Assembly (NCBI GenBank): GCA_963851265.1
Contig: CAWKNZ010000007.1
Location: 352,001 to 416,000 of the forward strand
Source: an uncultured Gemmatimonadales bacterium
Lineage (GTDB): Bacteria > Gemmatimonadota > Gemmatimonadetes > Gemmatimonadales > Gemmatimonadaceae
DNA length: 64,000 nt
Reading direction: 5' to 3'
In this document: positions 1,941 through 64,000 of the stretch, piece by piece
Position numbering within the stretch: the first letter of the stretch is position 1
How the letters are laid out: the number at the start of each line of letters is the position of its first letter
Program-made: the position numbers and the translations under genes
Notes under the pieces: generated by a model
Database searches by the model: none
Seen by the model: the letters and a program-made list of their open reading frames with translations, nothing else
Told to the model about the DNA's origin: nothing

Positions 1941-2327
1941 ATGTCGGTCCGCGGTTCCGCACTCCGCTGGCTCGCCGGCGCGCACGGCGTGCGCGACGCC
2001 GACATCTTCACCTCGCGCCTCTACCCGCCCGAGCAGTCGTGGACGGGGCGCGCGGCGTGGTGGGTGCAGGTGCCCGTGCACCGCCTGCATGCGTTAGGCG
2101 AGGGCGCGGTGCACCTCGTGTGCGAGGCGAGGCCGGGCGGGCGCGACTTCCACTACCTCCGCGTACCGGGCGCGTACCTGCGCGACCACCTCGCCGACCT
2201 CGACGCCGTGGACGACGGGCGCACGATCAGCCTCTTCCTGTCGGCCGAACCCGACGCGCGATTCCGCGACGAGCGCGGGCCCGGGCGGCTGGAGTTCGCG
2301 CGGTTCGCAGTAGCCCCCGCGACGTAG
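1941..2327 (+). CDS. hypothetical protein (128 aa)
   Basis: Protein-like composition, host codon style, ATG start 19 nt after the ndh stop. Confidence 0.65.
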   Translation: MSVRGSALRWLAGAHGVRDADIFTSRLYPPEQSWTGRAAWWVQVPVHRLHALGEGAVHLVCEARPGGRDFHYLRVPGAYLRDHLADLDAVDDGRTISLFLSAEPDARFRDERGPGRLEFARFAVAPAT

Positions 2328-2358
2328 CCGGGCGTCGCCGGTCGGGCCGCCCACGGCG

Positions 2359-3834
2359 TCACCAGAACGACCGCCCGTCGAGCCCGTCGGGCACCGCCAC
2401 CCCGAGCGCGGCGAGCACGCTCGGCATCACGTCCGCCGTCCGCCGCGGCGCGCGCGCGAACGGCCGGCCGGCGAGCAGTGGGACCAGCATGTGCTCGCGG
2501 TGGAGAGCGCCGTGCGACGACACGTGCGGGATTGGCTCGAATCGCGCGCGGAGGTCCCAGTCCCGCGCGGCCGAGACGATCACGTCGCCCGCGCGCGCGC
2601 TGCCGGCGAGGCTCGCGATCTGGACGAGCGCGTCGGGGTAGTCGGAGCGCTCGCAAACGTCGCACGCGGCGTCCGCGTCGAGGTCGCGGAGCGGCTCGCC
2701 TAACGCGAGCGGGTCGCCGCCGGCGATCGGCTCGTACCCGTACCCGTACGCGCGCGACGACCGGTCGGCCGGCGCGCGGTCGCTCGGCGACGCGCGCGCG
2801 CGCCGTACGCGCACGACGACCGCGCGGCCGCGGTCCCGATGGCGCACCTCGCACCGGTCTGCGTCCAGCGGGAGCAGCACGAGATCGACCGACGGCCGGT
2901 CGAGCAGGTCGGCGACTGCCGGCTCCCAGCGGGCGGCCAGGGCCCCCCACCACGGCCGCGCACGCCGGCCGAGCTCCAGGTACAGGTGCGCCATCGCGTT
3001 CCCGCTCACCATCACGGCGGCCTCGCGCCGCGCCGCGACGGTCACCGGGTGCGCGACCGTCGGCACGCCGCGGGCGCGCAGCCATCCGGCGAGGTCGTCG
3101 TGCGCGCGGACCCGCGAGTGCCCGTGGTCGCTCACCACCAGCAGGCGCGTCTCGCTCCACCATCCGCCGTGCTCGGCGTCCGCGCGCAGCTCGGCCACGA
3201 CACCGTCCACGGTCCGCAGCCCCTCGTCGACGAGTGGCCCCGCGTGCCCCGCCGCGTGCGACGTCTTGTCGATGCCGGTGAGCGCGCAGAACACGACCCG
3301 CGACGGCCGCCCCTCGGCGAACCCCGCCCGCACGCGCGCCGCGACCGTGGCGCCCACGTCGCGGTCGATGCGCAGCCACCCCGCCACGTCGCCGCGGAAG
3401 TGCGTCGCGGCGGCCCGGAGCGCGAACCCGGGACCGCGCGCCACGCGGTCCCGCGGGTCGAGGCCCCGCCCGATCATGTTGAGCGCCGCCAGGCCGGGTG
3501 GCGCGAGTTCGAACAGCGTCGGCGCGTTCGCATCGAGATCGCCGTCGAGGTGACGCATTTCCGCCCCCACGTAGCTGCGCGCCGCATCGGGCCGCGTGCG
3601 CGCCGTGCGGGCCCGATCGAACCAGCGCAGCCCCGGCAGCCCGATCGGTCCCGGAAAGCGTCCCATGAGGAACGGCGCATACGCCGGGCCCGTCACCGAC
3701 GGAAACACGCTCGCGACGGTCGCGAGTCCGCCCTCGTCGCGGAGCCGTGCGAGCGCCGGCACCCGGCCGCCGTCGAGCGCGGCCGCGAACGTGTCGGGGC
3801 GAGCGCCGTCGGCGACGAGGATGATCACGGGCAC
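2359..3834 (-). CDS. alkaline phosphatase superfamily protein (type I phosphodiesterase / nucleotide pyrophosphatase)
   Basis: ILVADGARPD, FPSVTGP (Thr nucleophile), IDKTSH, VSDHGH and SSHG metal-ligand motifs. Confidence 0.85.
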   Translation of the reverse strand: MPVIILVADGARPDTFAAALDGGRVPALARLRDEGGLATVASVFPSVTGPAYAPFLMGRFPGPIGLPGLRWFDRARTARTRPDAARSYVGAEMRHLDGDLDANAPTLFELAPPGLAALNMIGRGLDPRDRVARGPGFALRAAATHFRGDVAGWLRIDRDVGATVAARVRAGFAEGRPSRVVFCALTGIDKTSHAAGHAGPLVDEGLRTVDGVVAELRADAEHGGWWSETRLLVVSDHGHSRVRAHDDLAGWLRARGVPTVAHPVTVAARREAAVMVSGNAMAHLYLELGRRARPWWGALAARWEPAVADLLDRPSVDLVLLPLDADRCEVRHRDRGRAVVVRVRRARASPSDRAPADRSSRAYGYGYEPIAGGDPLALGEPLRDLDADAACDVCERSDYPDALVQIASLAGSARAGDVIVSAARDWDLRARFEPIPHVSSHGALHREHMLVPLLAGRPFARAPRRTADVMPSVLAALGVAVPDGLDGRSFW

Positions 3835-4924: not shown

Positions 4925-5457
4925 GCGATCCGACGGTCGCGCCCGCTCCCGCCGCGCGCGCGGGCGGCGCGGGAACTCGCGACCTCGACGAGGTGCCGCC
5001 GGGTGCGCCGTTCGCGTTAGGCCGGTCGCCGATGCACGGAATCGGCGCGTTCGCCACCCGCGCGATCCCGGCCGGCACGCGACTCGTCGAGTACGCCGGC
5101 GAGCGCATCACCCCGGCCGAAGCCGACCGGCGCTACCCCGAAACGCCCGGTGTCGCGCACCACACCCAGCTGTTCGCGATCGACGGGCCCGACGGCGAGG
5201 AGGTGATCGTCGACGCCGCAGTCGACGGAAACGTCGCGCGGTTCATCAACCACTCGTGCGATCCGAACTGCGACGCCGTCGTCGACGGCGGCAGGATCTG
5301 GATCACGACCGTGCGCGACGTGGCCGCGGGCGAGGAGTTGGCGTACGACTACGCGTTCATCCTCGCCGAGCGCCACACGCCTGCGGCGAAACGGCGGTAC
5401 CCGTGTCGGTGTGGAGCCGCGCGGTGTCGCGGGACGATGTTGGCGAAGAAGCGCTGA
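4921..5457 (+). CDS. SET domain protein-lysine methyltransferase with post-SET zinc motif
   Basis: HGIGAFA, EYAGE, ARFINHSCDPNC, GEELAYDY, CRCGAARCRG. GTGA overlap with the LOG stop. Confidence 0.9.
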   Translation: MSDPTVAPAPAARAGGAGTRDLDEVPPGAPFALGRSPMHGIGAFATRAIPAGTRLVEYAGERITPAEADRRYPETPGVAHHTQLFAIDGPDGEEVIVDAAVDGNVARFINHSCDPNCDAVVDGGRIWITTVRDVAAGEELAYDYAFILAERHTPAAKRRYPCRCGAARCRGTMLAKKR

Positions 5458-6906: not shown

Positions 6907-6954
6907 TCACCTGGCCGGAGGACGTTAGGCGACCGCGGCGCGTGTGGCCGGCGC

Positions 6955-8520: not shown

Positions 8521-8601
8521 GCGACCAAGATACCCCGCCGCGCGTCACCCCGGCGGACGTCGGCGCGACGGCGCAGACGTTAGGCGCCCCGGGACGTGCC
8601 G

Positions 8602-12120: not shown

Positions 12121-13452
12121 ATGTCCAACCCCAACCGCCACGACCGCGTCCAGTACGGCGCTCCGGGGCGCCGCGTCGCGATCGTCGCGGGGCTGCGTAC
12201 TCCGTTCGCCAGGGCGGGGACGGCCCTCGCGCGCCTCTCCTCTACGGAAATGGGCCGTCACGTCGTCGCCGAGCTGCTCGCGCGCGCCGAACTCGACCCG
12301 GCCGAGGTCCAGGGAATCGTCTTCGGCACCGTCGTGCCGAGCGTCACCGAGCCGAACATCGCGCGCGAGATCTCGCTCCTGCCGCAGCTGCCGCGCGGTG
12401 TGCAGAGCTTCACGGTGAGCCGCGCCTGCGCCTCCGCCAATCAGGCGATCACCGACGCGGCCGACCAGATCGTGCTCGGACACCTCGACTGCGTCGTCGC
12501 CGGTGGGGCGGAGTCGCTGTCGCAGGTGCCGGTGCTGCACTCGCGGCGAATGAGCGACGCACTCGTCGCGTCGAGCAGGGCCAAGACGCTTCCGGCGCGC
12601 GCGCGCACGCTCGCGGGCATCCGGCCCAAGGACCTCGTGCCGGTGACCCCGGCCATCGCGGAGCCGAGCACCGGCGAGACCATGGGGCAGAGCGCGGAGA
12701 AGATGGCGAAGCTGAACGGCATCTCGCGCGACGAGCAGGACGCGTGGGCGCTGCGCTCGCACCGGCTCGCCGCGGCGGGCACCGCCGACGGACGGCTCGC
12801 GGCCGAGATCGCGCCGGCGTTCCTGCCCGGCGCGGACGGCGGCGAGCCGGTCGCGCTCGACCGCGACAACGGCGTGCGCGCCGACACGTCGCTGCAGCAG
12901 CTCGCCAAGCTCGCGCCCGTGTTCGACCGGGCGTACGGCACCGTGACGGCCGGTAACAGCTCGCCGCTCACGGACGGCGCGAGCGCGGTGCTGCTCATGC
13001 GAGAGGACAAGGCGCGTGCGTTAGGCTATGCGCCGCTCGCCTACGTGCGCAGCTACGCCTACGCCGCGCTCGACCCCGGCGACGAGTTGCTGCAGGGGCC
13101 GGCGCTCGCGATGCCCGTCGCGCTCGCCCGCGCCGGGGCCGTCGCGCGCGACGTGGGACTCGTCGAGATCCACGAGGCGTTCGCGGCGCAGGTGCTCTGC
13201 AACCTCAAGGCGTTCGCATCACGCGCGTGGGCCGAGCGGGCCGGCTTCGCCGAGCCCGTGGGGGAGCTCGACCGCGACCGCATCAACGTGATGGGCGGGT
13301 CGATCGCGCTGGGCCATCCCTTCGGGGCGACCGGCGGGCGCGTGTTGACGACGCTCTGCCGCGAGCTCGCCCGCCGCGACGCCGAGCTCGGGCTCCTGAG
13401 CGTGTGCGCGGCCGGCGGGATGGGTCACGTGATGGTCGTGGAGCGGGCGTGA
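12121..13452 (+). CDS. fadI: acetyl-CoA C-acyltransferase (FadI-type thiolase)
   Basis: RTPF, SRACASA, GTVTAGNSSPLTDGASA, HEAFA, GHPFGATG, CAAGG. Confidence 0.9.
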   Translation: MSNPNRHDRVQYGAPGRRVAIVAGLRTPFARAGTALARLSSTEMGRHVVAELLARAELDPAEVQGIVFGTVVPSVTEPNIAREISLLPQLPRGVQSFTVSRACASANQAITDAADQIVLGHLDCVVAGGAESLSQVPVLHSRRMSDALVASSRAKTLPARARTLAGIRPKDLVPVTPAIAEPSTGETMGQSAEKMAKLNGISRDEQDAWALRSHRLAAAGTADGRLAAEIAPAFLPGADGGEPVALDRDNGVRADTSLQQLAKLAPVFDRAYGTVTAGNSSPLTDGASAVLLMREDKARALGYAPLAYVRSYAYAALDPGDELLQGPALAMPVALARAGAVARDVGLVEIHEAFAAQVLCNLKAFASRAWAERAGFAEPVGELDRDRINVMGGSIALGHPFGATGGRVLTTLCRELARRDAELGLLSVCAAGGMGHVMVVERA

Positions 13453-19439: not shown

Positions 19440-21989
19440 ATGTCACAGCACGTCGCGGCGCCGCGCGCCGCGTGTTCATCCGCGGTCCGTTCCCGTTCGA
19501 CCACGACGCGCGCGGCCGCGACGCTCGCCCTCGGCATAGGCTCCGCTGCGGGTCTCGCCGCGCCCGCCCGGGGCGCCGCGGCGCAGACGTCCGCCGCGCC
19601 GGCGCCCGTCGCGACCGCGGACCCGTCGCGCCTAACGGTCGAGCGGATCTTCGGCCGCGGGGAGTTCGCGGTCGGCGGCGCGCCCGGGCTGCAGTGGTTG
19701 CGCGACGGGCGCGCCTACGTGGAGGTGCGACCGGCCGCGGGCGGCGTCGACATCGTGCGCGTCGACGCGGCAACCGGCGCGGCGACGGTGCTCGTGCCGG
19801 CCGGCGCGCTGCGCGACGAGGCGGGGCGCGCGATCGTCGTCGAGGACCTGCAGCTGTCGCCCGACGAGCGCAAGGCGCTGCTGTTCCACAACTCGGTCCG
19901 CGTGTGGCGGACCAACACCCGCGGGACCTTCCACGTCGTCGACCTCGACACGCGACGCGTCACCCCGATCGCCACCGTGACCACGCCCGGAAAGCCGTCG
20001 GCCGCCGCCGCGAACGCGCCGAGCACGGCGGGCGGCGGCGCGGCCAGCTCGGGCATCCGCGTGCGGATCACCGCCGGGCGACGCGACACGGTCGGCGGGC
20101 AGGCGTTGGGCCAGCGCACCGCCGGGGTGCCCGCCGGTGCGCCGAGCTTCATCGGCCGTGGGCTGGCGAGCGGCGCGGTCGACGCCGACCTCCAGATGTT
20201 CGCCAAGTTCTCGCCCGACTCGCGGTCGGTCGCGTTCGTGCGGGGCAACAATCTGTGGGTGACCGACCTCGCGACCGGCCGCGCGACCCGCCTGACGTAC
20301 GACGGCTCGGACGACGTGATCAACGGCACCACCGACTGGGTGTACGAGGAGGAGCTCGGGCTACGCGACGCGTTCCGCTGGAGCCCCGACTCGCGGCGGA
20401 TCGCGTACTGGCGCTTCGACCAGACGGCCGTGCCTGCGTACCCGATCAACGACGAGACCGACGGCCAGTACCCGACGGTGAGTGTGCTGCGCTACCCGAA
20501 GGCCGGTGCGCCGAACTCGCGCGTGAAGGTCGGCGTCGTCGCGGCCGCGGGCGGCGGCCCCACGCGGTGGCTCGCGGTGGGCGCCGACACCGGCCAGTAC
20601 GTGCCGCAGATGGAGTGGCTCGGCACGGACTCGGTCGCCGTGATCCGCATGCCGCGGCGCCAGAACCGGCTCGACGTGCTGCTGGCGAGCGCGACGACCG
20701 GTGGCGTGCGCGAGGTCGTGAGCGACGTGGATTCCGCGTACGTCGACGTCGAAGGGAGCCCGGTGACGTGGATCGACGGCGGGCGGCGGTTCCTGCTCCG
20801 CAGCGACCGCACCGGGTGGCGCGGCTTCCACCTGTACGACCGCAGCGGGCGCTTCGTGCGGCAGGTCACGCCCGACGGCGCGGACTATCTCGAGGTCGCC
20901 GGCGTCGATTCCGCGCGCGGGTTCGCGTACGTGAGCGCGGCCGCGCCGACGCCCACGCAACGCAACCTGTACCGGTGCGCGATCGCGCCCGCGTCGAACG
21001 CTGCCCCCGCGTGCGCGCGGCTCACGCCGGCCGACGGCACGCACGCCGTCGAGATCGCGCCGGGCAACACGTACGCGATCGACACCTACAGCACCGCGGC
21101 GCGGCCGCCCGTCGCGTCGATGCTCTCGCTGGCGGCGGGGGGCGAGGCGTCGGTCGCGCTGCGCCCCGCGCGCGTGCTCGAGGACAACGCGGCGGTAGCG
21201 TCGCGGCTGGCCGCACTGGGCATCAGCGCGCCGCAGTTCTTCCGCGTCCCGACGCCCGACGGCACGCTGCTGGATGCCTACCGCATCGTGCCGGCTCGCT
21301 TCGACAGCGCCGCGCGGCACCCGGTGCTGATGTACGTCTACGGCGGGCCCGCGGCGCCACAGGTGAGCGACGCGTGGGGCGGCTCGCGGCTGATGTGGCA
21401 CCAGATGCTGGCGCAGCAGGGCTACGTCGTGGTGGTCGTCGACAACCGCGGCGCGGCCTGGCGCGGGCGCGCGTTCCGCAAGGGGACGCAGGGGCGGCTC
21501 GGCGTGCAGGAGTCGCAGGACCAGATCGACGCGGCGCGCTGGGTGGCGCGGCAGTCGTGGGCCGACCCCGCGCGCGTGGGGCTGTGGGGGTGGAGCTACG
21601 GCGGCTACATGACCGCGCTCACGCTCGCGCGCGGCGGCAGCGTGTTCAAGGCGGGCATCGCGGTCGCGCCGGTCGTCGACTGGCGCTTCTACGATTCGAT
21701 CTACACGGAGCGTTACATGTCGACGCCGCAAGCGAACCCGAACGGCTACCAGCTCAGCGCGGTCGCGTCGTACGTCGGCAACATGGCCGCGCGCCTGCTG
21801 CTCGTGCACGGCACCGGCGACGACAACGTGCACCCGCAGAACGCGCTCGTCCTCGCACAGGCGCTCGAGAACGCCAACAAGCCGTTCACGATGCTGCTGT
21901 ACCCCAACAAGACGCACAGCATCAGCGGCGGGCGCACGCAGGTGCACCTCTTCGGCTCGCTCACCCGCTTCGTTCTCGACAATCTGTGA
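19440..21989 (+). CDS. S9 family dipeptidyl peptidase IV-like protein
   Basis: DWVYEEE, YPKAG, VYGGP, GWSYGG, YTERYM, HGTGDDNVH, NKTH. Confidence 0.92.
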   Translation: MSQHVAAPRAACSSAVRSRSTTTRAAATLALGIGSAAGLAAPARGAAAQTSAAPAPVATADPSRLTVERIFGRGEFAVGGAPGLQWLRDGRAYVEVRPAAGGVDIVRVDAATGAATVLVPAGALRDEAGRAIVVEDLQLSPDERKALLFHNSVRVWRTNTRGTFHVVDLDTRRVTPIATVTTPGKPSAAAANAPSTAGGGAASSGIRVRITAGRRDTVGGQALGQRTAGVPAGAPSFIGRGLASGAVDADLQMFAKFSPDSRSVAFVRGNNLWVTDLATGRATRLTYDGSDDVINGTTDWVYEEELGLRDAFRWSPDSRRIAYWRFDQTAVPAYPINDETDGQYPTVSVLRYPKAGAPNSRVKVGVVAAAGGGPTRWLAVGADTGQYVPQMEWLGTDSVAVIRMPRRQNRLDVLLASATTGGVREVVSDVDSAYVDVEGSPVTWIDGGRRFLLRSDRTGWRGFHLYDRSGRFVRQVTPDGADYLEVAGVDSARGFAYVSAAAPTPTQRNLYRCAIAPASNAAPACARLTPADGTHAVEIAPGNTYAIDTYSTAARPPVASMLSLAAGGEASVALRPARVLEDNAAVASRLAALGISAPQFFRVPTPDGTLLDAYRIVPARFDSAARHPVLMYVYGGPAAPQVSDAWGGSRLMWHQMLAQQGYVVVVVDNRGAAWRGRAFRKGTQGRLGVQESQDQIDAARWVARQSWADPARVGLWGWSYGGYMTALTLARGGSVFKAGIAVAPVVDWRFYDSIYTERYMSTPQANPNGYQLSAVASYVGNMAARLLLVHGTGDDNVHPQNALVLAQALENANKPFTMLLYPNKTHSISGGRTQVHLFGSLTRFVLDNL

Positions 21990-23737
21990 GGTACGCCGCG
22001 CGCTGGACCGCGGCGGCCGGCCTCGCGATGGGCGCCTGTGCCGGGCGCGCGCGCCCGGGCGTCGCCCCCGGCGCGGCGCCAGGCGGGGCGCCGCCGGAGC
22101 AGGCGGCTGCGGCGCGCGTCCTCGCGGCGCGGGCGCGCTACGCCCCGCGCCCGCTCACGCGCGCCGAACGGAGCGGGTACGCCGAAACGTCGCGCTACGC
22201 CGACGTGGTCGCGTTCGTCGACTCCCTGGCCGCGCTCGCGCCCGCGGTGCTGCGCGTCGGCAGCATGGGGACGACGGGCGAGGGGCGCGAGATCCCGGTG
22301 GTGGTCGCGTCGCGCCCGGCGGTCGCGACGCCCGACGACGCGCGGCGCCTCGGCCGTCCGGTGGTGTACGTGCAGGCCAACATCCACGCCGGCGAGGTGG
22401 AGGGGAAGGAGGCGCTGCAGATGCTGCTGCGCGACCTCGCGCTCGCGCCGGCGCCTAACGTGCTCGACTCGCTCGTCCTCGTCGCCGTCCCGATCTACAA
22501 CGCCGACGGCAACGAGCGCGTGCGCGACCAGTCGATCAACCGTACCGAACAGAACGGCCCCGCGCTCGTGGGGCAGCGCCCGAACGCGGCCGGGCTCGAC
22601 CTCAACCGCGACTACATCAAGGCGGAGGCGCCCGAGACGCGCGCGGCGCTCGCGCTCATCAACCGATGGGACCCTGACGCGTTCGTCGACCTGCACACGA
22701 CCGACGGCTCGTACCACGGCTACGCGCTCACCTGGAGTCCGTCGCTCCATCCGTCGGCCCCGCTGGCCCCGTTCGCGCGGGACACCCTGCTGCCCCGCGT
22801 GGCCGAGCGGCTGCAGGCGCGCTGGGGGATTCCCACGTTCCCGTACGGCAACTTCGCCGAGGAGTACGGGGCCGACGTGAACGCCGACACGACCAAGCGG
22901 GGGTGGTACACGTACGACAGCCGGGCACGGTTCGGCACCAACTATTACGGGCTGCGCGGCCGCCTCTCGGTGCTGAGCGAGGCGTTCTCGCACGACCCGT
23001 TCGAGCGGCGCGTGCGGGCGACGTACGCATTCGTGGCGGAATTGCTCTCGGCCCTCGCCGGCAGCGAGACGCTCGCGCGGACGCGCGCCGGAGGCACAGG
23101 GGGCGGTGCGGTGGCGTTGCGGACGCACCTCACGCCCACGCCGCGGCGCGGCCCAGTGCTCGCCGAAGATCTCGAGCGCGCGCCGGACTCGGTGCGAACG
23201 CAGCCCGGGGTACCGCGCGGGCTGCGGCGGACGGGGCGCGTGCGGAGCCTCGAGTTGCCCATCTACGATCGGTTCGTGGCGACGCGCACCGCGAATCTGT
23301 CTGGGGGCGGGTGGGCGTTCAGCGCCGACGTGCCCGGGGCGGCGCAGGCCGCGGCACTGCTCCGACGCCACGGAATCACGGTCGAACAGGTCGCGCGCCC
23401 GCTGGCCCTGAGGACGCGCGTGTTCCGCATCGATTCCGTGGTGACGGCGACGCGGGCGTTCCAGGGGCATCACGAGGTGCGCGTCGAGGGCGCGTGGCGC
23501 GACGAGACGGGCGAGATGCCCGCGCGAAGCTACGTCGTGCCCGCGCAGGCGCGCATGCTGCTGGCCGCGGCGCTGCTCGAGCCCGAGGGCGACGACGGGC
23601 TGGTGACGTGGAACGTCTGGAACGACGCGCTACGTGCGGGGGGCGATTTCCCGGTCGTACGCATACGGGATCCGAGCGTTGGTCACGGAATGCTCGCGCC
23701 GCGGATCGATTCGGTGTCCGGGCCCGCGCGCCGCTGA
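21986..23737 (+). CDS. M14 family zinc metallocarboxypeptidase, probable lipoprotein
   Basis: 3' part of ORF 19472..23737; GTGA overlap with the S9 gene; IHAGEVEG, NADG, DLNRD, DLHTTDG. Confidence 0.85.
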   Translation: MRYAARWTAAAGLAMGACAGRARPGVAPGAAPGGAPPEQAAAARVLAARARYAPRPLTRAERSGYAETSRYADVVAFVDSLAALAPAVLRVGSMGTTGEGREIPVVVASRPAVATPDDARRLGRPVVYVQANIHAGEVEGKEALQMLLRDLALAPAPNVLDSLVLVAVPIYNADGNERVRDQSINRTEQNGPALVGQRPNAAGLDLNRDYIKAEAPETRAALALINRWDPDAFVDLHTTDGSYHGYALTWSPSLHPSAPLAPFARDTLLPRVAERLQARWGIPTFPYGNFAEEYGADVNADTTKRGWYTYDSRARFGTNYYGLRGRLSVLSEAFSHDPFERRVRATYAFVAELLSALAGSETLARTRAGGTGGGAVALRTHLTPTPRRGPVLAEDLERAPDSVRTQPGVPRGLRRTGRVRSLELPIYDRFVATRTANLSGGGWAFSADVPGAAQAAALLRRHGITVEQVARPLALRTRVFRIDSVVTATRAFQGHHEVRVEGAWRDETGEMPARSYVVPAQARMLLAAALLEPEGDDGLVTWNVWNDALRAGGDFPVVRIRDPSVGHGMLAPRIDSVSGPARR

Positions 23738-25275: not shown

Positions 25276-26328
25276 ATGCTCCGCAGCGCCCTCCTGTACC
25301 TCAGCAACCAGCAACAGGTCTTCGACTTCGTCCGCCACAACGGCCTCGCGAAGAAGCTTGCGTCGCGCTTCGTCGCCGGCGAGGACGTCGAGCCCGCCCT
25401 CGACGCCGTCGGCGCGCTCAACGCGAAGCGCATCACCGCCTCGCTCGACCTGCTCGGCGAGAGCGTGACCAACGAGGCCGAGGCGCGCGAAGCGGGGCGG
25501 CAGTACGTGCACCTGCTCGACCGCATCCGCGATCGCGCGCTCGACGCGAACGTCAGCCTGAAGCTGACCGCGATGGGCCTCGACATCTCCGAGGAGCTCT
25601 GCATCGAGGTCCTCGGCGCCGTGCTCGGCCGCGCGCGCGACTACGGCACGTTCGTCCGCCTCGACATGGAGTCGAGCGCCTACACCGAGCGCACGCTCCG
25701 GCTGTTCTACGACCGCCTCTACCCGGCGTACCCGGAGAACGTCGGAATCGTGCTCCAGAGCTACCTGTACCGCACCGACCAGGACGCGGCCGACGCGGCG
25801 CGCGCGGGCGCGCGCGTCCGCGTCTGCAAGGGCGCGTACAAGGAGCCGCCGTCGGTCGCGTACCCCGAGAAGGCCGACGTCGACGCGAGCTTCGTGCGCG
25901 CGATGCACACGCTGATGCGCGACGGGCGCTACCCGGGTCTCGCCACGCACGACGAGGCGATCATCGCGGAGGCGAAGCGGTTCGCGCGCGCCGAGGGGAT
26001 CGCGCCGGACCGCTACGAGTTCCAGATGCTCTACGGCGTCCGCCGCGACCTGCAGGAGCAACTCGTGCGCGACGGGTACCGGCTGCGCGTGTACGTGCCG
26101 TTCGGCACGTCGTGGTACCCGTACCTGATGCGCCGCCTCGCGGAGCGCCCGGCGAACCTGATGTTCATGACGGGCAACGTGCTGAAGGAGGCGGTCGCCG
26201 GCGGCCGCGGGGCGAACGGGACGCACGGCGCCAACGGCGGAGGCCTCACGAGCGCGGGCGTGACGGGCGCCGGCGCGCGGCGCGACGCCGGCGCCGACGT
26301 CGCCGGCCCGGGCGCGGACCGTCGTTAG
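25276..26328 (+). CDS. monofunctional proline dehydrogenase
   Basis: RFVAGE, DLLGE, SLKLT, RLDME, CKGAYKE, ATHD, EFQMLYG, YVPFG, RRLAERPAN. Confidence 0.92.
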   Translation: MLRSALLYLSNQQQVFDFVRHNGLAKKLASRFVAGEDVEPALDAVGALNAKRITASLDLLGESVTNEAEAREAGRQYVHLLDRIRDRALDANVSLKLTAMGLDISEELCIEVLGAVLGRARDYGTFVRLDMESSAYTERTLRLFYDRLYPAYPENVGIVLQSYLYRTDQDAADAARAGARVRVCKGAYKEPPSVAYPEKADVDASFVRAMHTLMRDGRYPGLATHDEAIIAEAKRFARAEGIAPDRYEFQMLYGVRRDLQEQLVRDGYRLRVYVPFGTSWYPYLMRRLAERPANLMFMTGNVLKEAVAGGRGANGTHGANGGGLTSAGVTGAGARRDAGADVAGPGADRR

Positions 26329-26332
26329 GCGC

Positions 26333-40249: not shown

Positions 40250-41482
40250 CTACCGCGCGAGCACCGCGGCCACCGCTTCGACCGCCGCGTCGACGTCGGC
40301 GTCGCTGTGCGCCGCGCTGGCGCTGAGCCGGAGCCGTGCCGCGCCCGCGGCGACCGTCGGCGGCCGGATCGCGCCGACGAGCACACCGCGCGCGCGCAGC
40401 GCGTCGCCGGCGCAGGCGGTGCGGCGCGCGTCGCCCACGAGCACGGGAATGATGTGCGCGTCGTCCGCGCCCGGCAGGCGGAGCCCGGCCGCGGCCAGCC
40501 CGGCGCGCAACCGGCGCGCGACCGCGCGCACCCGCTCGCGCCGCCACGGTTCCGCGGCGGCGACGGCGAGCGCCGCGCGCGCGCCCGCCGCGACCGCGGG
40601 CGGGGGCGCGGTCGTGAAGACGAACGACCGCGCGCGGTTGAGCAGCCACTCGCGGAGCGGCCGCGCGCCCGCGACGAACGCCCCGGCCGCGCCGAACGCC
40701 TTGCCTAACGTTCCGACCGTCACGTCCACGGCGCCCTCGACACCGCAGCGCGCCGCGCTCCCGCGCCCGCCGGGCCCGACGACGCCGGTCGCGTGCGCGT
40801 CGTCGACGTACAGGAACGCCCCGTGTCGCCGCACGACCTCCGCCGCCTCGGCGAGCGGGTGCAGGTCGCCGTCCATCGAGTACACGCCCTCGACCACCAC
40901 CCAGCGGCGCCGGAAGCGGCCCGCGTCGGCGCCTAACGCGGCGTCGAGCGCGGCGGGGTCGGCGTGCGGCACCACGCGCACCGCCGCGCCGCCCGCCCGC
41001 GCGAGGCGGCACCCGTCGACGATCGAGGCGTGGTTGAGCGCGTCCGAGTAGATGACGTCGCCGGCGCCGGCGAGCGCGGGGATCGTGCCCGTGTTCGCGG
41101 CGTACCCGCTGGCGAAGCACAGCGCGGCGTCGGCGCCCTTGAGCGCCGCGAGTTCGGCCTCGAGGGCGTGGTACTCGGGGTGATCGCCGCCGATCAGGCG
41201 CGCCGACCCGGCACCGAGCCCCTCGCGGGCGAGCAGCGCGGCGGCGGCCGCGGCGGGGCGCGGGTCGGCCGCGAGCCCGAGGTAGTCGTTGGACGCGAAG
41301 TCGAGCATCCGCGGGCCGGACGTGCGCGCGCGCGGACGGAGCGCGCGCCGCAATCCCGCCGCGTCGAGCGCCGCGAGCTCGGCGTCGAGCTGCGCCGCGA
41401 GCGACGCGTCGGGCGGCAGGTCGGCCGACCGGTCGGCGCGCGGGTCGAACGGCGGCGGGAAGGGTGCGAGAGCATCTGCCAC
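40250..41482 (-). CDS. bioF: 8-amino-7-oxononanoate synthase
   Basis: FASNDYLGL, SGYAAN, NHASIVDG, YSMDGD, DDAHATG, GTLGKAFG, IRPPTV. Confidence 0.93.
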   Translation of the reverse strand: MADALAPFPPPFDPRADRSADLPPDASLAAQLDAELAALDAAGLRRALRPRARTSGPRMLDFASNDYLGLAADPRPAAAAAALLAREGLGAGSARLIGGDHPEYHALEAELAALKGADAALCFASGYAANTGTIPALAGAGDVIYSDALNHASIVDGCRLARAGGAAVRVVPHADPAALDAALGADAGRFRRRWVVVEGVYSMDGDLHPLAEAAEVVRRHGAFLYVDDAHATGVVGPGGRGSAARCGVEGAVDVTVGTLGKAFGAAGAFVAGARPLREWLLNRARSFVFTTAPPPAVAAGARAALAVAAAEPWRRERVRAVARRLRAGLAAAGLRLPGADDAHIIPVLVGDARRTACAGDALRARGVLVGAIRPPTVAAGAARLRLSASAAHSDADVDAAVEAVAAVLAR

Positions 41483-45322: not shown

Positions 45323-46513
45323 ATGCCCGTCGTGCACTCCCGCTCCGCCGCCGTCCTCCTCGCCGCCGCATGTGCCGCGGCGTGTGCCACCGCCCAGGCA
45401 GGTGCCCAGAGCTCGTCCGCCGCGAACGGGTCGGCGCGCCAGCAGCCCGGCGTGACGCGGGCGCCGTTCGGCGCGCTGCCAGACGGGCGCGCGGTCGAGC
45501 GGTTCACGCTGACCAACGCGCACGGCATCACGCTGCAGGCGATAACGTACGGCGCGATCATCACCACGCTGCGCACGCCCGACCGCGCGGGCCACCTCGA
45601 CGACATCGTCCTCGGCTTCGACAGCGCCGCGGGCTACCCGCTCGGCAAGTCGCCCTACTTTGGCGCGGTCGTCGGCCGCTACGCCAACCGCGTCGCGAAC
45701 GGGCGCTTCACGGTCGACGGGCAGACGTACCAGCTGGCGCGCAACGACGGGCCCAACACGCTCCACGGCGGGCTCGTGGGCTTCGACAAGCAGATCTGGA
45801 CGGGGCAGCCGTTTCGACACGGCGACAGCGTGGGCGTCACGTTCAGCCGCGTGAGCGCGGACAAGGAAGAGAACTTCCCCGGCAACCTGACGACGCGCGT
45901 GACCTACACGCTCACGCCGCGGGACCAGCTCGTGATCGACTACGTGGCGACCACCGACCGCGCCACGCCGGTCAACATGTCGCAGCACACCTACTGGAAC
46001 CTCGGCGGCGCGGGCAGCGGGACCATCAACAACGAGGTCATCGCGATCGACGCGTCGTCGTACACGCCGGTGGACTCGACGCTGATCCCGACGGGCGAGA
46101 TCGCGCCGGTGGCGGGGACGCCGTTCGACTTCCGCAAGCCGACCGCGATCGGCGCGCGCGTGGGGCAGACCAACACGCAGCTGCGCTACGGCAAGGGCTA
46201 CGATCACAACTGGGTGCTCGACCGCGGCGGCCGGACGGGGCTCGTGCACGCGGCGCGCGTCGTCGACTCCGCCTCCGGCCGGACGCTCGACGTCGCGACC
46301 ACGGAACCGGGCCTCCAGTTCTACGGCGGCAACTTCCTCGACGGCACGATCCGCGGGAAGGGCGGGCGCGTGTACGCCTACCGGTCGGCTCTGGCGCTCG
46401 AGACGCAGCACTTCCCCGACTCGCCGAACCACGCGAATTTCCCGAGCACGATCCTGCGCCCCGGCACCACGCTGCGGTCGCGGACGGTGTTCACGTTCGG
46501 CACCACGCGTTAG
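45323..46513 (+). CDS. galM: aldose 1-epimerase (galactose mutarotase) with a signal peptide
   Basis: GRYANR, LHGG, HTYWNL, GYDHN, PGLQFY, LETQHFPDSPN. Confidence 0.92.
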   Translation: MPVVHSRSAAVLLAAACAAACATAQAGAQSSSAANGSARQQPGVTRAPFGALPDGRAVERFTLTNAHGITLQAITYGAIITTLRTPDRAGHLDDIVLGFDSAAGYPLGKSPYFGAVVGRYANRVANGRFTVDGQTYQLARNDGPNTLHGGLVGFDKQIWTGQPFRHGDSVGVTFSRVSADKEENFPGNLTTRVTYTLTPRDQLVIDYVATTDRATPVNMSQHTYWNLGGAGSGTINNEVIAIDASSYTPVDSTLIPTGEIAPVAGTPFDFRKPTAIGARVGQTNTQLRYGKGYDHNWVLDRGGRTGLVHAARVVDSASGRTLDVATTEPGLQFYGGNFLDGTIRGKGGRVYAYRSALALETQHFPDSPNHANFPSTILRPGTTLRSRTVFTFGTTR

Positions 46514-46522
46514 GCATCTCCG

Positions 46523-47619
46523 ATGGCCGACGCACCCTCCGGTAATCCCCCCGGGCCCTCGCTGCAGAGCCTCGCCGAGCGTCCGCACCGCCGGCACAAC
46601 CCACTCACGGGCGAGTGGGTGCTCGTCTCGCCGCACCGCACGCAGCGCCCGTGGCAGGGGCAGGTCGAGACCACGGCCGCGGCCGCGCGGCCGCGGTACG
46701 ACCCCACGTGCTACCTCTGCCCGGGCAACGTGCGCGCGAACGGCGAGCGCAACCCGGACTACCCGGGCACGTTCGTCTTCACGAACGACTACGCCGCGCT
46801 GATGCCCGCCGACGACGCGACGCCCGCGGCGCCCGTGGTCGTCGACGCGGGGCACCTGCTGCGGGCGGAGGCGGAGACTGGGACCTGCCGCGTGCTCTGC
46901 TTCTCGCCGCGGCACGACCTCACGCTCGCGACGTTAGGCACGCCGGCCGTGCGCCGGGTCGTCGACGTGTGGGCCGAGCAGACGGCGGAGCTCGGGGCGC
47001 GTCCCGACATCGGCCACGTGCAGCTGTTCGAGAACCGCGGCGAGATGATGGGCGCGAGCAACCCGCACCCGCACGGCCAGCTGTGGGCCCAGCGGCACGT
47101 GCCGCTGCACACCGCGGGCGAGCTGGTGCGCCAGGGCGAGTACCACGCGCGGCACGGGCGCCCGCTGCTCGCCGACTACCTCGCCGCGGAGGAGCGGCTC
47201 GGGGAGCGCGTCGTGGTGGCCAACGACGAGTGGGTCGCGCTCGTGCCGTTCTGGGCGGTGTGGCCGTTCGAAACGCTCGTGCTGCCGCGGCGCGCCGCGT
47301 CGTCGCTTCCGGAGCTGGACGCCGCCGCGCGCGACGGGCTGGCCGACGTGCTCTCGCGCCTCACCGCGACCTACGACCGCGTGTTCGACGTGCCGTTCCC
47401 GTACTCGATGGGCGTCCATCAGGCGCCCACGGACGGCGCCCGACGGCCCGAGTGCACGGTGCACCTGCACTTCTACCCGCCCCTCCTTCGCTCGGCGACG
47501 GTGCGCAAGTTCCTCGTCGGCTACGAGATGCTCGGCGAGCCTCAGCGCGACCTCACGCCGGAGAGCGCGGCGGAGCGGCTGCGCGCGCTCGCGACGCGAC
47601 CCGCCACGACCAACGTCCC

Positions 47620-47623
<4 letters not shown>
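46523..47623 (+). CDS. galT: galactose-1-phosphate uridylyltransferase
   Basis: [38 protein letters not shown]. Confidence 0.95.
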
Positions 47624-52367: not shown

Positions 52368-52385
52368 GGGCCGCCGGGGGCGGGC

Positions 52386-52685
52386 CTAACGTGCGCGGCG
52401 GCGCAGCTCGTCCTGGAGTGCCCGGAGGTGACGCGGCCACACGTGCCGCGCGAGGTGGAGGAAGTTGCGCCGCGCGTCGGGCTCGGCGGTCAGGAACTCG
52501 GCGACGCCGCGGTGCCCCTTGCGCGTGTTGCAGGCCCCACACGCCGTCACTAGGTTGCCGCCCGACCGGTCGCCCCCCTTCACGCGCGGCTGGACGTGGT
52601 CGACGCTGAGCTGCTCGACGGGGAACTCGCCGCCGCAGTAGACACACCGGTGACCGTCGCGGGCGAACACTTCCTCGCGCCTCAT
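52386..52685 (-). CDS. small HNH endonuclease
   Basis: RDGHRCVYCG..DHVQPRVKGG..NLVTACGACNTRKG. Confidence 0.88.
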   Translation of the reverse strand: MRREEVFARDGHRCVYCGGEFPVEQLSVDHVQPRVKGGDRSGGNLVTACGACNTRKGHRGVAEFLTAEPDARRNFLHLARHVWPRHLRALQDELRRRAR

Positions 52686-53095: not shown

Positions 53096-53455
53096 GTGAT
53101 GCCCGGCCCGATCACGCTCGCCGTCGTGAACGCCCGGGTGCATACCGGCGACCCGCGCCGACCCTGGGCCGACGCGGTCGTCGTGCGCGGCGACCGGCTC
53201 GCGTTCGTCGGCTCGGCCGCCGAAGCGCGGAAGCTCACGCGCGAGGCGCCCGAGGCGCGCGTCGTCGACGTCGGCGGCCGGTTCCTGACGGCCCCCGCGG
53301 ACGCGCCCGGCGTGCTGCGTGCAGGCGAGCCCGCCGACTTCGTCGTCGTCGACCGGGACCTCTCGCGGACCGACGCGGCGGCCGCCGGCGACGCGCAGGT
53401 CATCCTCGCGGTTCGCGGCGGCCGCGTCGTCGGCGACGCCGGCGCTCTACGTTAG
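53096..53455 (+). CDS. amidohydrolase beta-sandwich-only protein (no catalytic barrel)
   Basis: N-terminal NARVHTGD..AVVVRGDRLAFVG..VVDVGGR joined directly to C-terminal GVLRAGEPADFVVVDRD..VRGGRVV. Confidence 0.7.
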   Translation: MMPGPITLAVVNARVHTGDPRRPWADAVVVRGDRLAFVGSAAEARKLTREAPEARVVDVGGRFLTAPADAPGVLRAGEPADFVVVDRDLSRTDAAAAGDAQVILAVRGGRVVGDAGALR

Positions 53456-53488
53456 GCATCCGCCCCGCCCACCCCAGCGCCCGCTCCG

Positions 53489-61629: not shown

Positions 61630-61701
61630 GGCCCGGTCGGTCGCGCGCGGCGGAATCGGGGGGCGCCCAACACGGGCGCCCCTCGGCGCGTTGTGGCAGC
61701 T

Positions 61702-64000
61702 ATGACGACCGCCCCCGCCCGCGCCGCGCGCGCGCTCCTGTATGCCGGCGTCCTTGCCGGCACCCGGCTCGCAGCCCAGCCGGCCCCCGCGACCGAACGC
61801 CTCGACGGCTTCCTTCCGCTCCGACTCGAGTCGGCGAGCGGCCGGGTGCTTCTCGAGCTCCCCGCCGACACGACGCGCGCCCTCCTCCTCACCTCGCTCG
61901 CGACCGGGCTCGGATCCAACCCGGTCGGACTCGATCGCGGCGCGAACGGCGAGGGCTACGTCGCGCGCTTCGAGCGCTCCGGCGCGCGCGTGCTCGTCGT
62001 GCTGGAGAACTGGAAGTATCGATCGAGCGACTCGGCGAATGCCGCGCACCAGCGGACGATCGCGGACGCGTTTCCGCCGAGCACGATCGTGGCCCTGCCC
62101 ATCGTTCCCGCCCCGACCACGGCGGCGGGCGGCGCATCTGCTACCACGCCGCCGGGCGCGCGCCTGGTGGTCGACGCGACCGACCTGTTCGTCCGCGACT
62201 GGATGGAGGTGACGCGCACGCTCGCCCGGACGGGGCAGGGGAGCTACGCGCTCGCGCGCGACCGCTCGGGCGTGTACCGCCCCGCGACGCGCAATTTCGC
62301 GCACAACACCGAGGTGGACGTGGCGCTGACCTTTGCCGCCGCGGGTCCCCCCGGCCCGATCGTCGAGTCGATCGCGCCCGACGGGCGGGCCGTCACACTG
62401 CGCGAACACGTCTCGCTCCTGCCGCTCCCGGCCGGCTACCGGCCGCGCGAGGCCGACCCTCGCGTCGGGTACATCGGCGTGCGTTTCCAGGACTACGCGC
62501 GGCCCGTGGACCGTCCGTTAGGCGTGACGTGGATCGCGCGCCACCGCCTCGACCGCGGGCCGGACGGGCGCATCGCCAATCCGATCGTGTACTACGTCGA
62601 CCCCGGGATCCCCGAACCCGTCCGCACCGCGACGATGCAGGGCGTCAAGTGGTGGGAGGACGCGTTCGCGCGCGCCGGACTCGCGGGCGGACTGCGCGTC
62701 GAGTGGCTGCCCGCGGGCGCCGACCCGGCCGACGCGCGCTACAACGTCGTGCAGTGGGAGAACCGCAACGAGCGCGGGTGGTCGATCGGCGGTTCGTTGG
62801 GCGACCCGCGGACGGGCGAGATCGTCAAGGCGATGGCGCGCATGGACTCGCACCGCGCGCGCACCGACGCCAACATCTACGCGGCGCTCGTCGGCGCGGA
62901 CGCGACGCCGGCGGAGACGGCCTTCGTGCTCGCGCGCGTGCGCCAGGTCAGCGCGCACGAGGTCGGGCACACGCTCGGCCTCACGCACAACTACATCGCC
63001 TCCTCGTACGGGCGCGCGAGCGTGATGGACTATCCCGCGCCGCGCGTGCTGCCGCGCGCCGACGGCACGCTCGACCTCTCGCAGGCGTACGCGGTCGGGC
63101 CGGGCGACTACGACGTGTGGGCCATCCGCTGGGGGTACGGCATCTTCCCCGCCGCGACCGAGGGCGACTCGCTGCGCGCGATCGTGGCCGAGGGCCTCCG
63201 GAAGGGCTACCTGTACCTGAGCGACGCGGACGCGCGCCCCGAGTTCTCGAGCGACCCGCGGGTGAATCTGTGGGACGACGCGGACACGGAGGACGAGTAC
63301 TGGACGCGCACCACGAACGTGCGCCGCGCCGCGATGGCGCGCTTCACGGAACGGGCCGTGCGCCCCGGCGACCCGATCGCGCTCGTGCAGGAGCGCTTCG
63401 TGCCGCTCTACTTCTGGCACCGCTTCGCGCTCAACCGGCTCGCAAAGACGTTAGGCGGCGTCGAGTACGCGAACGCCGTTCGCGGCGACGGGCAGCAGGC
63501 GACGCGCCCCGTCGCCCCGGCTCGGCAGCGGCGCGCGCTCGCCGCGATCGCCGGCGCGCTCGCGCCCGCGGAACTCGCCGTGCCCGACACGGTGCGCACG
63601 CTGCTCGCGCCGTGGGCAGACCAGGTCACGCCGGCCGTCGAGCTGTTCGGGGGGCGGGCGCGGCCCGTGTTCGACGAACTCGGCGCCGCGCGCACGCTCT
63701 CGGCGATGATCGTCGACGCGGCGCTGCAGCGCGACCGCGCGACGCGGCTCGTTCAGCAGCGTCTGCACGACCCGCTGCAGCCGGGGCTCGGCGACGTCGT
63801 CGACGCCCTCCTCGCGGCGACCGCGCCGCGCGCCGAGGCGCCTCACGGCGGCGCGGGCGGAACGGCGCCACGCGACGCCGCGCTGCGCCGCGTCGCACAG
63901 CGGGCCGTCGTCGACCGCCTGCTGGCGCTCGCCGCCGACAGCGCGGCGGCACCCGAGGTGCGCGCGATGGCCGAGTTGAAGCTGGGCGCGGTGGCCGCGA
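61702..64000 (+). CDS. exported zinc-dependent metalloprotease (metzincin-like), runs off the window end
   Basis: Absent from the ORF track. My translation from ATG 61702 gives HEVGHTLGLTHNY in frame (codon at 62956), the Met-turn SVMDY, DPRVGY and PIVYYVD. Confidence 0.88.
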   Translation, partial: MTTAPARAARALLYAGVLAGTRLAAQPAPATERLDGFLPLRLESASGRVLLELPADTTRALLLTSLATGLGSNPVGLDRGANGEGYVARFERSGARVLVVLENWKYRSSDSANAAHQRTIADAFPPSTIVALPIVPAPTTAAGGASATTPPGARLVVDATDLFVRDWMEVTRTLARTGQGSYALARDRSGVYRPATRNFAHNTEVDVALTFAAAGPPGPIVESIAPDGRAVTLREHVSLLPLPAGYRPREADPRVGYIGVRFQDYARPVDRPLGVTWIARHRLDRGPDGRIANPIVYYVDPGIPEPVRTATMQGVKWWEDAFARAGLAGGLRVEWLPAGADPADARYNVVQWENRNERGWSIGGSLGDPRTGEIVKAMARMDSHRARTDANIYAALVGADATPAETAFVLARVRQVSAHEVGHTLGLTHNYIASSYGRASVMDYPAPRVLPRADGTLDLSQAYAVGPGDYDVWAIRWGYGIFPAATEGDSLRAIVAEGLRKGYLYLSDADARPEFSSDPRVNLWDDADTEDEYWTRTTNVRRAAMARFTERAVRPGDPIALVQERFVPLYFWHRFALNRLAKTLGGVEYANAVRGDGQQATRPVAPARQRRALAAIAGALAPAELAVPDTVRTLLAPWADQVTPAVELFGGRARPVFDELGAARTLSAMIVDAALQRDRATRLVQQRLHDPLQPGLGDVVDALLAATAPRAEAPHGGAGGTAPRDAALRRVAQRAVVDRLLALAADSAAAPEVRAMAELKLGAVAA

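Follow-up and report, generated by a model that had tools for sequence, protein, structure and literature searches.

A strand-symmetric octamer written into the genomes of scattered Gemmatimonadales lineages as a possible DNA-uptake tag

The stretch analyzed here (the window; 64,000 nucleotides, G000:C7:352001-416000) belongs to an uncultured soil bacterium of the Gemmatimonadaceae (Gemmatimonadales), G000, whose 4.60-Mb assembly comprises 12 contigs, has ~73% G+C, is 94.4% complete and is not closed. The non-palindromic octamer CGTTAGGC, hereafter the word, runs through genes, stop codons and spacers of the window. A first-pass annotation counted 24 exact copies (14 plus, 10 minus); we find the same 24, each at the coordinate it gave, and the six near variants it listed are present where it placed them. 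Below we argue that double-strand DNA is the level at which the word is selected or driven and, tentatively, that it serves as a self tag in DNA uptake or transfer. G004 and G001, which belong to the genus of G000, share synteny with the window at ~80% nucleotide identity, and the 24 copies are given here with their state in these genus-mates where an ortholog was read.

2092..2099, plus: xCG-TTA-GGC (Leu-Gly), sense of gene 1941-2327 (+)
2698..2705, minus: xCG-TTA-GGC, sense of phosphodiesterase-family gene 2359-3834 (-); identical word in G004 and G001
5015..5022, plus: xCG-TTA-GGC, sense of gene 4921-5457 (+); word kept in G001, TGTTAGGC in G004
6923..6930, plus: intergenic, between convergent genes 6001-6906 (+) and 6955-8520 (-); near variant CGTTAGTC 22 bases upstream
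8578..8585, plus: intergenic, in the divergent spacer between gene 6955-8520 (-) and the probable secreted nuclease gene 8947-11379 (+)
13019..13026, plus: xCG-TTA-GGC, sense of thiolase gene 12121-13452 (+); kept in G004 and G001
19630..19637, minus: antisense, xGC-CTA-ACG (Leu-Thr), in DPP IV-type peptidase gene 19404-21989 (+); word in G001, GCTGAGGC in G004
22453..22460, minus: antisense, xxG-CCT-AAC-G (Pro-Asn), in M14 carboxypeptidase gene 21986-23737 (+); kept in G004 and G001
26323..26330, plus: stop CGT-TAG-GC of proline dehydrogenase gene 25276-26328; ATG of the next gene at 26333
27557..27564, plus: xCG-TTA-GGC, sense of RsgA GTPase gene 26752-27858 (+)
27967..27974, plus: ACG-TTA-GGC (Thr-Leu-Gly), in the probable lipoprotein signal peptide of gene 27906-28952 (+)
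32883..32890, plus: xCG-TTA-GGC, sense of M61 peptidase gene 31883-33529 (+); kept in G004 and G001
34185..34192, minus: xCG-TTA-GGC, sense of gene 33579-34343 (-); kept in G004 and G001
35127..35134, minus: xCG-TTA-GGC, sense of gene 34461-35243 (-); word in G004, CCCTCGGC in G001
37032..37039, minus: xCG-TTA-GGC, sense of gene 36756-37703 (-)
39140..39147, minus: xCG-TTA-GGC, sense of class III aminotransferase gene 38855-40099 (-); CGTTGGGC in G004, TGTTAGGC in G001
40703..40710, minus: xCG-TTA-GGC, sense of class I/II aminotransferase gene 40250-41482 (-); kept in G004 and G001
40931..40938, minus: xCG-TTA-GGC, second copy in aminotransferase gene 40250-41482 (-); word in G001, CGTTTGGC in G004
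46508..46515, plus: stop CGT-TAG-GC of aldose 1-epimerase gene 45452-46513
46932..46939, plus: xCG-TTA-GGC, sense of galactose-1-phosphate uridylyltransferase gene 46619-47623 (+); word in G001
52384..52391, minus: stop CGT-TAG-GC of gene 52386-52670 (-)
53450..53457, plus: stop CGT-TAG-GC of gene 53096-53455 (+)
62516..62523, plus: xCG-TTA-GGC, sense of DUF4953 Met-zincin gene, 61702 to beyond the window (+)
63449..63456, plus: xCG-TTA-GGC, second copy in the DUF4953 Met-zincin gene (+)

Automatic calls sorted these copies into 15 sense, 4 stop, 2 antisense and 3 intergenic. Copy 27967 was then moved by hand to the sense class, and the first-pass tally of 16 Leu-Gly copies, 4 stops, 2 antisense and 2 intergenic stands. 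The gene around that copy probably starts at the ATG at 27906 rather than at 28026, because the extension reads as a signal peptide: its start is charged, and it contains a hydrophobic stretch and an LAAC lipobox. The product of the gene at 8947-11379 (+), 810 residues long, combines Lamin-tail, Big_2, non-specific DNA/RNA endonuclease and PKD domains and probably attacks external DNA as a secreted or surface nuclease; the gene has a copy of the word ~370 bases upstream.

None of 100 dinucleotide-preserving shuffles of the window attained 24 copies of the word (mean 1.63, maximum 5). Its one-mismatch variants as a class were not enriched there (62 observed versus ~53 expected, figures obtained as 86 matches minus the 24 exact ones and 54.3 expected minus 1.6). 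Across the whole of G000 the word occurs 1,396 times (708 plus, 688 minus), or 0.30/kb (1 per 3.3 kb), and it is the top 8-mer of the genome by z score (58.3 expected under an order-3 Markov model, observed/expected 24, z 175). The 7-base core GTTAGGC is present in 1,762 copies, 79% of them immediately preceded by C. C is preferred over T at this position, and TGTTAGGC, in which position 1 is changed, is the sole other strongly enriched variant (243 copies, 12.9-fold). At positions 2-8 no one-mismatch variant exceeded 2.6-fold; CGTTGGGC reached 2.5-fold, and CGCTAGGC was depleted to 0.12. Conservation was not detected beyond the 8 bases in the flanks of the G000 copies. A codon-context comparison indicated that the 5' C merely helps while the 3' C is essential: the share of CCT was 26.2% in the full word, 6.4% in GCCTAAC when the G opposite the 5' C was lacking, and 1.0% in CCTAACG when the G opposite the 3' C was lacking.

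Enrichment also held against a codon-aware null, in which synonymous codons were shuffled within each gene so that each protein and the codon totals of its gene, TTA included, were retained. For these comparisons we used our own crude codon-likelihood gene caller, which gave 3,681 genes covering 87.8% of the genome with approximate starts. Coding DNA of G000 holds 1,035 copies versus 38.1 +/- 6.4 after shuffling, and the complete genes of the window hold 15 versus 0.70 (maximum 3 in 300 shuffles). TTA codons are concentrated in the word: GGC comes next in 1,005 of 1,283 (78%), compared to 6.9% of all leucine codons, and sense xCG-TTA-GGC copies supply 61% of them (783/1,283). The first-pass annotation had staked its proposal on these two points, an excess over a codon-preserving shuffle and a bias of TTA toward GGC, and both hold.

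The use of the word by reading frame is given below, genome-wide.

Sense xCG-TTA-GGC: 783 copies, at 783/4,698 compatible [SPTA]-Leu-Gly sites (16.7%)
Antisense xxG-CCT-AAC-G (Pro-Asn): 168 copies, at 168/973 compatible Pro-Asn-[VADEG] sites (17.3%)
Antisense xGC-CTA-ACG (Leu-Thr): 61-62 copies, of 1,872 compatible [GSRC]-Leu-Thr sites (3.3%)
Sense xxC-GTT-AGG-C (Val-Arg, two rare codons required): 21-22 copies, of 3,394 compatible sites (0.6%)
Intergenic (own gene calls): 210 of 1,396 copies
Overlapping a stop codon: about 150-160 copies

The predominance of sense copies, and with it the excess of TTA-GGC, is an effect of opportunity and not a property of the signal, because the antisense Pro-Asn frame is written at an equal rate per compatible site. 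Both types of stop are used: the reverse complement GCCTAACG contains 90 of 424 TAA stops and CGTTAGGC contains 73 of 741 TAG stops. In spacers between co-directional genes, 61 copies are oriented with the genes and 53 against them. Since the Pro-Asn and Leu-Gly rates are equal, TAA and TAG stops are both used and spacer orientation is balanced, we conclude that selection or drive acts on the word as double-strand DNA, irrespective of the transcription strand, and that its frame usage mirrors what proteins and codons permit. Its enrichment in all four stop-free frames, at both stops and in spacers bears out the earlier suggestion that the DNA word, rather than the protein, is under selection. 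For annotation, most of the rare TTA codons and about one in five TAA stops in these genomes trace to the word. The same data speak to a signal in mRNA or translation, such as a pause at TTA-GGC or an RNA-binding site. The 783 of 1,396 copies in sense xCG-TTA-GGC and the 78% of TTA codons before GGC are what such a signal would produce, but it would explain neither the equal antisense rate, nor the TAA stops made through the reverse complement, nor the unbiased intergenic orientation; moreover, G000 has a tRNA-Leu(UAA) gene, so TTA is an ordinary codon. The frame and strand results contradict an RNA-level signal, to which we give almost no credence.

We next turn to the fate of individual copies over time. 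Among the window copies, 13 had an ungapped orthologous 8-mer in G004, which was the same word in 8; in G001 the numbers were 12 and 10. A larger comparison drew on 275 kb of G004 aligned to G000 at 80% nucleotide identity. Here 47 of 75 G000 copies (63%) were kept in G004. By comparison, the commonest synonymous spelling, CGCTCGGC, was kept at 86 of 207 sites (42%), CGTTGGGC at 11 of 52 and CGCTGGGC at 6 of 22, and 8-mers overall at 28.6%. Conversely, 67 of 114 G004 copies were missing from G000, which mostly had CGCTCGGC or CGTTGGGC there instead. Copies are maintained above the synonymous background, yet they are gained and lost between species. At greater distance, none of 21 G000 copies were words in G006, a word-poor genome (72% identity, 90 kb aligned) with ordinary CTC or CTG spellings at these sites. 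In the very rich genome G012 (70% identity) 8 of 23 were also words, a share that settles no common descent because the high writing rate of G012 alone could give a similar one.

These data, together with the leucine codons around the word, bear on whether it could be a by-product of sequence-biased mutation or repair, for example by a methyltransferase and very-short-patch repair as proposed for HIP1 of cyanobacteria. Leucine before any G-starting codon, our context control, is ~83% CTC and 9-14% CTG. In the word context xCG-Leu-GGC the shares are CTC 57%, CTG 5.6%, TTG 8.8% and TTA 27.3%. The CTC and CTG pools are both drained, so transversions as well as transitions are needed, and an origin by transitions alone from CTG, which we had considered, was withdrawn on the evidence of this control that the two are drained alike. 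(This codon-context effect is strong across G000: leucine after xCG and before codons not starting with G is 47% CTC and 43% CTG.) Repair biased at one position moves a single one-mismatch pool, whose expected size of 20-200 copies falls short of 1,400; here several changes, transversions included, would be required. Nor would it be expected to write the word in the Pro-Asn frame and at both kinds of stop, TAG and TAA, or to keep copies better than synonymous spellings, and a Vsr homolog was not found in the 94.4%-complete G000. In its favor are the precedents of the link between HIP1 and a methyltransferase and of the shift in E. coli oligomer counts caused by very-short-patch repair, as well as the 2.5-fold enrichment of the intermediate CGTTGGGC and the depletion of CGCTAGGC to 0.12. 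On balance we consider this origin very improbable.

How the word lies along the chromosome was analyzed with dnaA (C1:12048-12530) as the origin landmark and a test for over-dispersion, as GC skew, including that of third codon positions corrected for gene strand, gave no usable origin or terminus signal in G000. Given the coding opportunities, the strand of the word was not over-dispersed in 100-kb bins (chi-square 38.2, 46 degrees of freedom). On contig C1, the DNA to the right of dnaA has 28 plus copies (34.5 expected) and 32 minus copies (25.9 expected). A Chi-like 3:1 skew would have shown in nearly every 100-kb bin. The lack of replication-strand skew argues against a polar signal resembling Chi or the FtsK-orienting polar sequences (KOPS), read by RecBCD/AddAB or FtsK, as do the near-equal totals of 708 and 688 and the failure to find RecC (PF04257) in the 94.4%-complete G000, where AddAB was not searched for. 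A non-palindromic, over-represented 8-mer at a frequency near that of Chi in E. coli has the general look of such a signal; we nevertheless regard this as extremely doubtful.

Spacing between copies is near random (coefficient of variation 1.08), with a deficit below 200 bp (2.2% versus 6.0% expected). Density differs by the type of spacer: 0.99 copies/kb between convergent genes, 0.35 between co-directional genes and 0.22 between divergent genes, around a genome mean of 0.30. Together with the copies at stop codons, these densities reveal a clear preference for the 3' ends of genes. The word also follows G+C content at third codon positions (GC3), computed without the word codons. Across rising GC3 classes the TTA share in xCG-Leu-GGC was 14%, 12%, 19%, 27% and, in the top quartile, 38%; the CCT share in the Pro-Asn context rose from 7% to 34%; and words per 1,000 codons rose from 0.22 in the lowest to 1.25 in the highest GC3 genes, ~5.8-fold. 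This gradient is the reverse of what relaxed codon bias would produce, and the word reaches its highest density in the most native genes. Accessory DNA is sparser: G004 carries 0.48 copies/kb in its aligned core versus 0.23 (12 copies over 53 kb) where blocks of >=4 kb do not align. The longest word-free stretch of G000 is C1:182875-227962 (45 kb of normal G+C, 0.738, with 39 genes). At the other extreme, G000:C8:140000-150000 holds a class II lanthipeptide cluster, with a LanM-type enzyme (DUF4135 and LanC-like domains), small open reading frames (ORFs) and genes for HlyD and outer-membrane efflux; it is the densest region outside the integron described below, with 8 cores in 4 kb, several in spacers.

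Enrichment proved to be patchy among relatives, which are not statistically independent of one another. In a survey of 31 relatives, all 5 genomes of the window's genus were rich in the word (727-2,415 copies). G012 was richest, with 6,360 copies in 5.1 Mb (1.2/kb); G008, G017, G018 and G030 had 345-605, G016 was intermediate with 194, and the other 20 had 3-65, under the backwards-read control. G012 is 62.8% G+C, indicating that richness is independent of extreme G+C. It writes the word in a mild dialect: in a sample of this genome (L207-L226) CGTTAGG (512 copies) exceeded GTTAGGC (423), and the 3' C was present in 69%, versus 96% in G000. A wider survey of 161 genomes of the phylum found enrichment only in three families of the window's order, namely in G114, G124 and G159 (f1), in G167 and G166 (f2) and, from the first set, in G030 (f3); none of 49 genomes sampled from families outside the order (f4-f12) were enriched. 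G011, G078 and G117 are unpublished genomes that appear among the word-poor, and no conclusion rests on them alone. In an RpoB tree the rich lineages (the genus, G017, G012 with G018, and G030) are interspersed with poor ones (G015, G005); this is a single-gene tree made by a quick method, with a weak backbone and 27 of the 31 genomes (G002, G008, G013 and G014 had no rpoB match), and gains and losses cannot be counted on it. In a 400-kb sample of one poor genome, G006, no alternative word was dominant (top z ~10 versus 51 in a like sample of G004). The first-pass description of a lineage-specific chromosomal signal fits this picture, in which enrichment is restricted to scattered genera of one order. 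The presence or absence of the word among genera looks as if a specificity factor had been gained and lost.

One way to account for these features is that the word is the binding site of a chromosomal protein, with selection on each copy for a function unrelated to transfer, such as a self-marker that restrains a nuclease or defense system in either orientation, or a site for a nucleoid organizer. We rate this as rather unlikely, though it deserves serious weight. The word is sharply defined and exact, 63% of copies are kept versus 42% for the synonymous spelling, its scattered distribution would suit a reader gene gained and lost, and 1 per 3.3 kb is within the range of Chi in E. coli. Its spacing, by contrast, is not regular, and the poverty of divergent, promoter-bearing spacers is unlike a regulator site. 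That density climbs with GC3 and falls by half in accessory DNA suits a slow drive and is not obviously the mark of a function acting site by site. Finally, no candidate reader was found.

A different lead comes from integrons, since the spelling of the word coincides with the recombination core of attC sites. Four attC sites inspected in G000 start with GCCTAACG and end with CGTTAGGC. They lie in a cassette array at C10:186-215 kb and at C6:1592-1708. The array (G000:C10:186000-215025) consists of small minus-strand ORFs separated by attC, has 31 core hits in 30 kb and reaches the contig end. The GCCTAACG/CGTTAGGC pair at attC spacing was found in at least 123 stretches across soil-phylum records; among the matches listed (about 80) were Acidobacteriota, Verrucomicrobiota/Chthoniobacterales, Bacteroidota, Chloroflexota, Myxococcota, Pseudomonadota, others and Gemmatimonadaceae. 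Its occurrence in many soil phyla makes this a general attC spelling of soil bacteria. In word-poor relatives the few copies stand 550-650 bp apart on one strand, like cassette arrays. Such clusters, with spacings of 500-700 bp, were seen in G019:C3, G021:C95/C80/C43, G029:C1, G089:C12/C23 and G093:C55; G021:C95 also bears ComEC, so its cassette-like array is chromosomal.

These coincidences raise the possibility that the integrase or a relative of it reads the genome-wide copies as attC R-boxes, for example as landing pads for cassettes. In addition to the shared ends, the wide spread of the pair and the array-like copies in poor relatives, position 1 is a pyrimidine (Y) in attC R'' boxes (GCCTAACA) as it is in the enriched forms of the word, and, from the known crossover point, a stop-codon copy would be regenerated by cassette insertion, which would leave the cassette behind a host promoter. 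Set against this, the word does not track the integrase. An integron integrase scored above the family cut-off in 18 of 31 relatives, unrelated to word richness. In G000 the intI gene is split, with model positions 2-265 at C6:5244-6044 (-) and 260-313 at C6:3005-3166 (-), around a ~2.1-kb insert that encodes, on the opposite strand, a large serine recombinase (Resolvase, Recombinase and Zn-ribbon domains). Among other rich genomes, G001 has an intI fragment with a stop, G012 has pieces in three frames, and none was found in G002, G008 or G018 (G002 and G018 being only 78-79% complete), whereas six poor genomes (G005, G006, G007, G009, G010 and G014) have an intact gene. When R'' and R' boxes 50-140 bp apart and flanking an imperfect hairpin were sought, G000 had only 8 perfect-core pairs at attC spacing versus 1,762 cores. 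Cassette insertion into genomes requires GWT only (10.1101/2022.09.11.507474), and no integrase reaction that we know of writes a lone, in-frame synonymous word. Because integrase presence does not track enrichment, attC pairs are few and GWT suffices, the integrase is not the agent that maintains the words, and we judge the integron-tied explanation distinctly improbable.

The coincidence could also arise by another route. Chromosomal integrons are known to capture cassettes from single-stranded DNA imported by natural transformation (PMC12614218). The competence or transfer apparatus might recognize the attC core, favoring the import of cassette-bearing DNA, with the lone copies in housekeeping genes a by-product spread by recombination. 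We consider this combination improbable. If true, it would link uptake specificity with integron cassette capture, systems so far treated separately, and would constitute the first uptake signal outside Proteobacteria.

A self tag for uptake would call for uptake machinery and for a reader. G000 has uptake genes: ComEC, DprA, two secretins, PilB, PilS/R, pilins and a ComEA-like helix-hairpin-helix protein. Two paralogous four-gene minor-pilin clusters, 27-30% identical, lie at G000:C5:26000-35000 and C9:33000-36400, the former adjoining PilS/PilR and a secretin. We also identified an orphan minor pilin of the GspH/FimT family at G000:C7:452372-452890 (-), 36 kb past the right end of the window, with the C-terminus SRLGRVR. 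Of 31 relatives, 29 have this FimT-like pilin, as do 4 of 5 further genomes of the order; its homologs are labelled FimT or GspH/FimT by their sources, and all 33 aligned homologs end in S-R-x-G-R-x-R/K, a GRxR/K motif. Compared by sequence search with solved structures, it matched at the N-terminal pilin helix alone. The FimT of Legionella, also an orphan minor pilin, binds DNA through a C-terminal GRxR that transformation requires, and it bound DNA regardless of the probe tried (PMC8897410). We regard the FimT-like pilin as a candidate for binding DNA during natural transformation in this order; FimT itself was described in Gammaproteobacteria.

Several genes were considered as readers of the word and rejected. 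By phylogenetic profile, the integron integrase, ComEC, the C9 pilus-cluster gene and the FimT-like pilin all fail to split rich from poor genomes, and the last gene of the C9 pilus cluster is without a close counterpart in other genomes of the genus. Local clusters of a word can flag its reader gene, an approach taken in the Ssn/NTS paper (PMC11893778). The densest clusters here are the integron array and the lanthipeptide cluster, and neither holds a candidate.

Collectively, these data lead us to favor, with somewhat less than even confidence, the idea that CGTTAGGC is a self tag for DNA uptake or biased transfer with a putative sequence-specific reader. In this model, the word would be recognized in double-strand DNA by the putative reader protein. 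Fragments that bear it would be favored by uptake through a type IV pilus and ComEC, or otherwise be passed preferentially among relatives, and imported fragments would then recombine into the chromosome and spread the word. Alleles with the word would displace word-free ones wherever the protein and gene tolerate the spelling, and the transfer bias would hold copy number high. With biased repair, a polar signal and an RNA-level signal set aside, what is left is a sequence-specific reader of double-strand or imported DNA that would either give a benefit at each site or bias which DNA is handed on. Biased transfer fits more of the data than a benefit at each site, because the strands are symmetric, spacing is near random, gene ends are preferred and tolerated frames are written, and because accessory or atypical genes are sparser, high-GC3 genes are densest, and presence or absence falls at the level of the genus.

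A number of observations weigh against a self tag. Word-poor relatives have the same uptake genes as G000. ComEC is found in all 31 relatives, with no split between word-rich and word-poor, and among 33 sequences no residue of the FimT-like pilin divides rich from poor lineages. The search for a ComP-type receptor in G000 returned only sub-threshold PF16732 matches to the N-terminal part of two pilins (E 0.03 and 0.09). Competence is not, to our knowledge, described in this phylum. GC3 is thought to rise with recombination via biased gene conversion, but its connection with word density is a step we infer. The known uptake words have a density of roughly 0.8/kb, above the 0.30/kb of this word. 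Spacing is no more even than random, and only 31 pairs of words, in any orientation, are <200 bp apart, so inverted, terminator-like pairs are rare. Lastly, a self tag alone leaves unexplained the exact match of the word to the integron attC core.

Should the word be a self tag, it would provide a third independent case of uptake tags, in an abundant and little-studied soil phylum, and would suggest that self tags are commoner than thought; we know of textbook genome-wide uptake tags in two bacterial families only. We found no open-access paper or preprint that pairs GTTAGGC, or a DNA uptake sequence, with Gemmatimonad*. The word would also offer a handle on gene flow in soil Gemmatimonadota, and its rich and poor sister lineages are a natural experiment for discovery of the reader.

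Comparison with known systems places the word closest to uptake sequences. Among the analogs proposed in the first-pass annotation, these give the best fit, while Chi falls for lack of strand skew and a methylase with very-short-patch repair falls on pool size and the absence of a detected Vsr. HIP1 (GCGATCGC) is likewise an 8-mer that overrides codon usage, occurs in scattered lineages and is conserved beyond neutral expectation, but HIP1 is palindromic and its abundance is linked to a methyltransferase, whereas CGTTAGGC is asymmetric and no Vsr was found in G000. Chi (GCTGGTGG) and KOPS (GGGNAGGG) of E. coli are over-represented asymmetric 8-mers with one copy per few kb, as here; they are strongly skewed to one replication strand, whereas CGTTAGGC is unskewed, and RecC was not found in G000. 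The attC R'/R'' core (GTTRRRY/RYYYAAC) shares its spelling with the word over 8-9 bases at attC ends here and in many soil phyla, but >98% of word copies are lone, without an attC hairpin partner, and sit in frame in housekeeping genes. The DNA uptake sequence (DUS) of Neisseriaceae is 10-12 bp long and read by the minor pilin ComP, and the uptake signal sequence (USS) of Pasteurellaceae has a 9-bp core. The word differs from both in being 7-8 bp long, sparser (0.3/kb in G000, 1.2/kb in G012) and in another phylum, present or absent by genus rather than as a dialect in every genus, with few inverted terminator pairs, no ComP homolog found here and a spelling equal to an integron recombination core. 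We do not claim that it belongs to either class, because the receptor search returned no such homolog and biased uptake is our reading of the pattern. With DUS and USS it shares a short, exact, non-palindromic form in hundreds to thousands of copies, equal strands without replication skew, writing in the frames that proteins tolerate, enrichment at gene ends (at 3' ends, as for the DUS of Neisseria), lineage specificity with what may be slight dialects, sparser accessory DNA and the presence of competence genes. In its sequence pattern, then, the word behaves like a DUS or USS.

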